From assembly GCA_964643195.1 (NCBI GenBank), contig CAZXQV010000001.1:1-39033 (forward strand): a DNA stretch of 39,033 bases, read 5' to 3'. Numbering within the stretch: position 1 is the stretch's first letter; each line of letters begins with the position of its first letter. Positions 14,626 through 14,790 of the stretch are shown one piece after another. The notes under the pieces are model-generated. The model was given only the letters and a program-made list of their open reading frames with translations, did not search any database and was not told where the DNA came from. The translations under genes were made by a program, and so were the position numbers. This stretch comes from an uncultured bacterium. Lineage in GTDB: Bacteria; Chlamydiota; Chlamydiia; Chlamydiales; JAAKFR01.

Positions 14626-14790
14626 TATAGCTGAATCAGTACAAAATTGCAGTGTTTGACCGCGCCAAAGCGCTCGTGCCTGAACGATCCTAAATGACTC
14701 AATGTTAGAAACATGGGCTTGTTTAGGATCGTGGAGTCGCGAGACTGTCGCGTGGGTGAAACACTGCAATTTTGTACTGATTCAGCTATA
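14626..14790. repeat. 165-bp palindromic MITE-like repeat, full copy A
   Basis: 32-bp perfect terminal inverted repeats: tatagctgaatcagtacaaaattgcagtgttt / aaacactgcaattttgtactgattcagctata. There is an inner stem gatcctaaa...tttaggatc. Related copies lie at 17632, about 19565 and 25718. Confidence 0.92.

Follow-up and report, generated by a model that had tools for sequence, protein, structure and literature searches.

The Correia elements (CREE/NEMIS) of Neisseria have the tip TATAGYGGATT, and no transposase has been identified for them (PMC2649163). Inversion of Correia elements has been reported (PMC2649163, PMC10969869), as was found here for the apex of a palindromic repeat named F1. The F1 repeat resembled Correia elements in size (about 70, 105, and 155 bp for Correia; a 150–169-bp peak and forms of about 70–120 bp for F1), in TATAG-tipped inverted repeats, in target duplication, in a copy number well above 100, and in a host genome without the transposase. 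Correia elements often lie upstream of genes and carry promoters, whereas F1 was located mostly at the 3' ends of genes. F1 also differed in its chlamydial host and in termini with identifiable IS630-family relatives. The termini had been called Correia-like in the initial annotation, which held for the tip, where 11 of the first 13 nt agreed with TATAG[CT]GGATTAAC, but not for the rest of the repeat or the core. Assignment to the Correia family itself, with its TATAG[CT]GGATTAAC/AAATTT... repeat and a core with an IHF site, was rejected because only about 13 nt were alike. F1 therefore stands outside the Correia family, though it works like a member of it.

ISs of the IS630/Tc1-mariner type and their MITE derivatives have TA duplication and short terminal inverted repeats in common with F1. 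Unlike an IS630-derived MITE, F1 has an interior that is not an IS deletion derivative but an independent palindromic core, which also occurs under other termini, and the genomes with most copies lack the transposase in the assembly. Like F1, ERIC/BIME of enterobacteria (about 127 bp) are imperfect palindromes whose central inverted repeat is conserved; they are located in transcribed intergenic regions and are conserved between genera. F1 differs from them in its defined TATAG termini, TA duplication, and clear presence/absence between close species. Rickettsia palindromic elements resemble F1 in being palindromic, in their length of about 150 bp, and in their proliferation within a small obligate-intracellular genome (PMC10969869). 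They lie in frame within genes and encode peptide segments, whereas F1 was mostly outside crude ORFs and often replaced the native stop codon. No published MITE family for Chlamydiae was found in the searchable literature.

The window, that is, the whole stretch of 39,033 nucleotides analysed, is the entire contig C1 of the genome under study (G000), a MAG of 1.39 Mb in 250 contigs with 44% G+C and 80% completeness. The window contains genes for a Chlam_OMP protein and for type III secretion translocators, and the relatives with similar elements carry names of Simkaniaceae or Chlamydiia MAGs. The genome was therefore regarded as chlamydial. It is probably Simkaniaceae-like, with a size of about 1.4–1.7 Mb and presumably an obligately intracellular life, as chlamydiae have. 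Two sister species, G001 (97% complete) and G002 (91% complete), were used for comparison.

F1 is probably a new Correia-like, IS630-type MITE family that inserts at TA, is dispersed over the genome, and lies mostly at gene 3' ends. The full element, about 165 bp long and thus small by the MITE limit of about 300 bp, lacks an ORF and is, over its entire length, a single imperfect palindrome. Its terminal inverted repeats of about 32 nt begin with TAG and have a duplicated TA on each side, so that the ends read TATAG...CTATA. The termini have stops in all three frames. The interior is a core of about 100 nt that consists of an X arm (GCCAAAGC...), a central hairpin with the apex AT[AG]TTAGAAA[CT]AT, and a Y arm (...GCTTTCGCG). 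For the reference element, copy A, the 32-nt terminal inverted repeats were confirmed to be perfect, as described. Folding of the whole element into a single hairpin, as proposed before, was also supported: the calculated energy of the RNA was −97.6 kcal/mol (z = −14; DNA, z = −17), and none of 200 shuffles folded as well as copy A. The loop of about 25 nt that had been placed at the centre was absent; the centre paired down to a 3-nt apical loop.

The copies of F1 in the window are listed in the table. The two full-length copies of the initial annotation were real, with 88% identity as reverse complements and 81–85% in direct comparison, and the half copy was verified as well. The supposed core-only degenerate copy at about 19565–19713 was in fact a complete chimeric element with a different terminus at each end and the usual X arm, hairpin, and Y arm as its core. 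Its right-hand terminus type is common in other Simkaniaceae and Chlamydiia MAGs. The solo half of a type-2 element, the solo terminus, and the internal fragment were additional to the earlier list.

Table. Copies and fragments of F1 in the window, with adjacent genes
Feature	Coordinates	Strand	Remarks
Solo half of type-2 element (TATAGCCGATTCAATTTGAATGGATCATTTTCACCGCGTCAAAGCTCTCGGGCTTG)	5657–5712	+	Overlaps stop of redoxin gene (5152–5661)
Full-length type-1 element, reference copy A	14626–14790	.	32-nt perfect terminal inverted repeats; X arm left, Y arm right; between convergent WD40 (12916–14568, +) and NUDIX (14805–15293, −) genes
Solo F1 terminus (TATAGTCGATTCATTTTGAATATG on minus strand)	16086–16109	−	Just downstream of SRP RNA gene (15958–16057)
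Solo half of type-1 element: terminus and start of X arm	17632–17679	+	47/48 nt identical to copy A; TAT-AGC-TGA forms the last two codons and stop of Rce1-like protease gene (16852–17640)
Complete chimera: left terminus F1 type 2 (TATAGTCTATGCAGTTTGGATTGATAATTTTGC), right terminus TATACCCAA-type	19546–19714	.	Adjoins 3' end of SBP_bac_5 gene (19714–21261, −)
Full-length type-1 element, opposite arm orientation, apex flipped relative to arms	25718–25882	.	Termini give ...YS-stop to methyltransferase (25133–25726, +) and CopD-like translocator (25874–27196, −) genes
Internal F1 fragment: arm and inner part of type-2 terminus	31700–31751	.	Truncated by another repeat starting CTCACCTTACC

A dispersed family with a high genome-wide copy number had been predicted from the window, and this was what the genome contained. 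A library of long units detected at least 163 F1 loci on 101 of the 250 contigs, which together occupy 12.5 kb (0.9%) of the assembled sequence. The count is a lower bound, since repeats break the assembly; the fragmentation of the MAG into 250 contigs is likewise explained by repeats. About 14 full-length 165-bp type-1 copies on different contigs and many partial copies were found in G000 by blastn. The 14-nt tip TATAGCYGAWTCAG occurred 78 times exactly, 173 times with at most one mismatch, and 281 times with at most two, against 0, 1.9, and 32.5 for shuffled-motif controls. The broader tip pattern TATAGYYRAWTCRGT had 92 exact occurrences in G000 and none for the reversed control. Exact termini numbered 105 in G002 and 0 in G001, so that F1 is multi-copy, dispersed, and present or absent between related genomes, as MITEs are.

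The search of the genome and its relatives thus did not indicate local duplication, which the initial annotation had raised as the alternative. That local duplication or faulty assembly produced the repeats has next to no probability. The high fragmentation of the assembly is in keeping with an artefact, but the copies lie on 101 contigs in unrelated flanks, and related subfamilies occur in other, well-assembled genomes. In exact-protein look-ups for other strains, a Logan contig independent of the assembly had the same junction and broke inside the F1 terminus; for a second look-up, the protein was not on record.

At least three terminus types with the common tip TATAGYYRAWTCRGT were distinguished: type 1 (...GTACAAAATTGCAGTGTTT), type 2 (...GTTTGGATTGATAATTTTGC), and type 3 (...GTTGAAAACTGCAGATTTGG). 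All three were joined to homologous X/Y arms and the AT[AG]TTAGAAA[CT]AT apex, and type-1/type-2 chimeras were present in G000. Units measured from terminus to terminus had their main size peak at 150–169 bp (22 units), plus intermediate sizes; among the shorter forms were those of about 70–120 bp and 24 mini-palindromes of 19–40 bp. About 180 of 313 termini were solo. This size spectrum and the solo ends fit decay by centre-removing deletions, truncation, and nesting with other repeats.

The TA target duplication proposed for F1 was supported at two sites, 25718–25882 in the window and C85:659–823. The orthologous site of the former was empty in G001, where the methyltransferase and CopD-like genes are directly convergent (...CTTAACTG-TA-GAGCTGACG...); the window reads ...CAAGAG-TA-[TAGCTG...CAGCTA]-TA-GAGCTGACG... 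at the same site. The empty site was rebuilt under three models: an element TAG..CTA with one duplicated TA, no duplication, and a TATA duplication. The first gave the CopD-like protein the C-terminus ...RQLYS*, as in G001 (...ARQLYS*). Without duplication the C-terminus was ...RQLLLNYI*, and with TATA duplication the ORF read on for 20 more residues. At C85:659–823, located at the 3' end of a DnaB-like gene, the TA model gave ...FASL*, and the G001 and G002 orthologues end in ...FASI*. The no-duplication and TATA-duplication models were rejected at both sites; at C85 both read through.

The flanks of 30 G002 copies had no direct repeat except the TA. Abutting F1 elements read GCTA-TA-TAGC with one TA in common (9 junctions against 1.6 expected), and 24 F1 termini had ...CTA immediately before them. 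The two reconstructions, the G002 flanks, and the abutting junctions therefore support TA duplication, the reconstructions being between species at about 70% DNA identity rather than between filled and empty alleles of one species. On these cross-species reconstructions, F1 has the target-site duplication of a MITE and the TA insertion of IS630/Tc1-mariner elements. The region around copy A is rearranged relative to G001 and G002, and a syntenic site was therefore absent from both. Mapping of G002 insertion flanks onto G000 by blastn and tblastx revealed too little synteny, with 1–3 usable sites.

TA duplication is a hallmark of IS630/Tc1-mariner elements. The initial annotation had proposed looking for an IS630/Tc1-like or other transposase with inverted repeats matching F1. 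IS630-family ISs with such repeats were found in the relatives G017 and G005; they matched types 2 and 3 as well as the G002 subfamily, but not type 1. The IS630-family ISs of related genera were 917–938 bp long, with HTH and DDE_3 ORFs and TA-TAG inverted repeats. The IS G017:C170 (917 bp, HTH and DDE_3 ORFs) has the repeat TATAGCAAATAAACTTGAAAATTTTAC, which matched the G002 MITE end TATAGTCAAATCGGTTGAAAATTTTAC with z = 4.6 (0/500 shuffles) and F1 type 3 at 17 of 28 positions beyond TATAG (4/2000 shuffles). The repeat of the IS G005:C31 (938 bp), TATAGTGGTTTGATTTTTAATTGATAATTTG, matched F1 type 2 at 18 of 28 positions (0/2000 shuffles), both repeats having ATTGATAATTT in register. The type-1 terminus had no IS repeat match beyond TATAG among the ISs of relatives examined (z ≤ 0.9). 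The repeats of the G017 IS630 copies L031 and L035 and of the G030 copy had no significant match to any F1 type, and the F1 core was not derived from the interior of the ISs examined.

In the assemblies of G000 (80% complete) and G002 (91% complete), no DDE_3 (IS630) gene or remnant was detected, although G002 showed a recent MITE burst. The IS630 transposase lineage was present in 6 of the 40 relatives sampled and absent from all three assemblies of this genus. Among the sampled relatives, this lineage and TATAG-type MITEs did not occur together, except in G017.

Other candidate partners were rejected. The DDE_Tnp_1 transposases of G000 and G002 were of ISAs1, IS4, or IS1634 type, with CAGGG... 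repeats and a 9-bp duplication unrelated to F1. The multi-copy ORFs of G000 were ISAs1 and IS66-like N-termini, LRR proteins, and other non-transposase paralogues. The "solo" ends running into recurrent sequence, considered as a possible IS interior, were junctions with a third MITE family. Intact ISAs1 copies in G002 had CAGGGAAATTGCATG repeats and a 9-bp duplication. At C2:10438–10991 of G000, an ORF for an ISAs1-type transposase N-terminus ended within a partial F1 terminus (10947–10991); a paralogue was located on C101.

These results bear on whether F1 could be a TA-duplicating MITE moved by a non-IS630 transposase, with the IS630 repeat similarity either convergent or limited to sibling subfamilies. 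Such a mover is unlikely. The lack of an IS630 gene in the assembled G000 and G002, the type-1 end without an IS match beyond TATAG, and the Correia elements, which have the TATAGYGGATT tip and no identified transposase (PMC2649163), are consistent with it. Against it stand two independent, register-preserving IS630 repeat matches from the same bacterial family (0/2000 and 4/2000 shuffles), the TA duplication, and the first 15 nt, core, and chimeric partners that type 1 has in common with types 2 and 3. From the repeat similarity of the sibling types, we infer that F1 elements are IS630-type MITEs that would be moved in trans. The source transposase may have been lost or may lie in unassembled sequence. 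An IS630/Tc1-mariner-type DDE transposase, provided in trans, would bind the terminal repeats and would cut and paste F1 into TA dinucleotides.

IS200/IS605 elements have neither long terminal inverted repeats nor TA duplication. F1 has both, and it is highly improbable that its copies are REP/RAYT- or IS200/IS605-type hairpins handled as single strands by a Y1 (HUH) transposase, even though the palindromic hairpin structure, the 19-bp mini-palindromes, and the flip-flop isomers of the apex agree with such handling. The REP/RAYT system comprises palindromes of 20–40 bp and a Y1 (RAYT) transposase in the genome; no Y1/HUH transposase (Y1_Tnp, PF01797) was detected in G000 or G002. REP families are defined by GTAG or CGTC heads (PMC3733652), whereas the heads of F1 are TATAG, and F1 was rejected as REP/RAYT.

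The genomic location was tallied for 152 intergenic F1 loci in G000. Convergent genes flanked 39% of F1 loci, compared with 17% of all intergenic regions; tandem genes flanked 49% (66% of all intergenic regions), and divergent genes 12% (17% by number and 29% by length). The element was present in 36% of all convergent gene pairs. The stop codon was donated by 39 termini, with TAG at nt 3–5 in 19 and TGA at nt 7–9 in 12. None of the 21 units tightly wedged between ORFs lay between divergent genes. The orientation of the core relative to the upstream gene was unbiased (4 against 6), so there was no sign of a strand-specific RNA role. Of 227 F1 loci, 44 were within crude ORF calls, for which intragenic insertions, chance motif matches, and over-called ORFs are all possible.

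Between genera, the termini varied more than the core of about 100 nt, an uncommon pattern in a MITE. The core with its X arm, hairpin, and Y arm recurred in G013, in G037, and in several MAGs named as Simkaniaceae or Chlamydiia, there under quite different TATAC... termini (also L081/L002 of HKST-UBA02, which is G013). Altogether the core occurred under three terminus classes, TATAGCYGAWTCAG, TATACCCAAACAAYTTCAAAAATTGG, and TATACCCATTCCACTTCAAG. The difference between X and Y (GCCAAAGC versus GCGAAAGC) was conserved and yields a C.C mismatch in the hairpin; this asymmetry, including the mismatch, was kept in at least four genera and three families of the order. Searching by exact pattern, with the own genome left out, gave no complete F1 element in the named genomes scanned.

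The conservation of the core raises the question of whether F1 is primarily a hairpin with a function of its own (for example, a bidirectional transcription terminator, a site of RNA processing, or a binding site for a host factor), so that selection for this function rather than selfish transposition would explain its abundance and 3'-end placement. The X/Y asymmetry kept across genera under three terminus classes, the occupation of 36% of convergent pairs, and the very stable hairpin favour this explanation. It is nevertheless quite improbable: G001 has no element at all, the core orientation is unbiased, Rfam covariance models had no match over 14560–14860 even at E ≤ 10, and F1 is rich in decay products, solo ends, and nested insertions. 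Moreover, purifying selection on insertions alone explains the placement. F1 as an IS630-type MITE family remained the preferred interpretation.

The apex of the core was present in two orientations. With the arms set X-left/Y-right, 11 type-1 copies, copy A among them, read CAATGTT-AGA-AACATGG, and 3 copies, including 25718–25882, had the inverse. Both orientations, with AGA and TCT loops, also occurred within one other genome, Chlamydiia bacterium HKST-UBA11 (L077 and L085), which shows that the flip-flop extends beyond G000. The flip might result from an exchange between the arms, either by recombination or by template switching. As a tentative and rather doubtful suggestion, the core could be a functional module (a site for a host or transposition factor, a bidirectional terminator, or an RNA-processing hairpin) that was repeatedly re-capped with IS630-type ends, and the flip-flop isomers could reflect a hairpin-based step in the life cycle of the core.

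The history of F1 differed among the three species. G001 (97% complete) had neither F1 termini nor the core. The type-1 copies of G000 had a mean pairwise identity of 88.6%. G002 had a 162-bp subfamily with ends TATAGTCAAATCGGTTGAAAATTTTAC..., in which F1-like termini surround a different core; its mean identity of 95.4% points to a recent burst. At three G000 sites, G002 had an element of its own in the same intergenic region at a different position (L020, corresponding to G002:C7 at about 1290–1470; L066; and L049), which suggested a limited set of tolerated sites.

Two further palindromic MITE families, unrelated to F1, were observed in G000. F2 is about 158 bp long with ends CTCACCTTACGCACTTTTTCTCTC... 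and lies at 8333–8491 in the window. It has a clean 7-bp target duplication, TTAAAAA at this site and TGAATCA or TATATCA elsewhere. G000 contained 59 F2 termini at about 44 loci, with repeated insertion into the TGAATCA of F1 termini. F3 is about 150 bp long with ends TACTAATTGCAAGAGTTAAATCCACAAAAGAGGATCA... and was found at about 19 loci, including C5:3201–3363, C77:700–862, and C86:2587–2749, with a short match at 31779–31801 in the window. The flanks of F3 often end in TAA or TTA, and chimeric F3-F1 junctions occurred at the AATTGCA common to both.

Other features of the window were recorded. A 32-nt inverted repeat (ATTATCAACTCACCTTACCTGGACTTTGTACA) at 31740–31771 and 33012–33043 brackets about 1.24 kb. 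Its CTCACCTTAC part resembles F2 termini, and TGGACTTTGTACA recurs beside an F2 end on C87; the segment 31740–33043 is possibly a further composite or a mobilised stretch. Rfam reported a match to group II intron domain V/VI (44.5 bits) at 37520–37594 with no intron-encoded protein nearby, and a reverse-transcriptase-like ORF fragment was located on C247 of G000. Two tandem tRNA genes at 30372–30557 (Rfam tRNA, 57 and 51 bits) were about 90% identical and 102 bp apart.

Comparison of the three species shows that F1 spread in lineage-specific bursts, with type-1 copies about 89% alike in G000, the 162-bp subfamily at about 95% in G002, and none in G001. The surviving copies lie mainly at harmless places, at gene 3' ends and above all between convergent genes, where their termini often replace the native stop codon. 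The probable routes of decay are deletion of the centre, which leaves mini-palindromes of 19–40 bp, truncation, which leaves solo ends, and the insertion of other MITEs or recombination with them.

G000 is a small genome with three MITE families, G001 has none, and G002 has its own recent burst. Together they form a natural system for studying the invasion and purging of selfish DNA in reduced genomes. F1 rewrites gene 3' ends, marks the junctions of convergent genes, and offers markers for strain typing. Also unexpected in this family is a core that keeps its asymmetry while the ends around it interchange. Since the TATAG tip is common to Correia elements and is tied here to IS630-family repeats, F1 provides a lead on the kind of transposase that possibly moves Correia-like elements.
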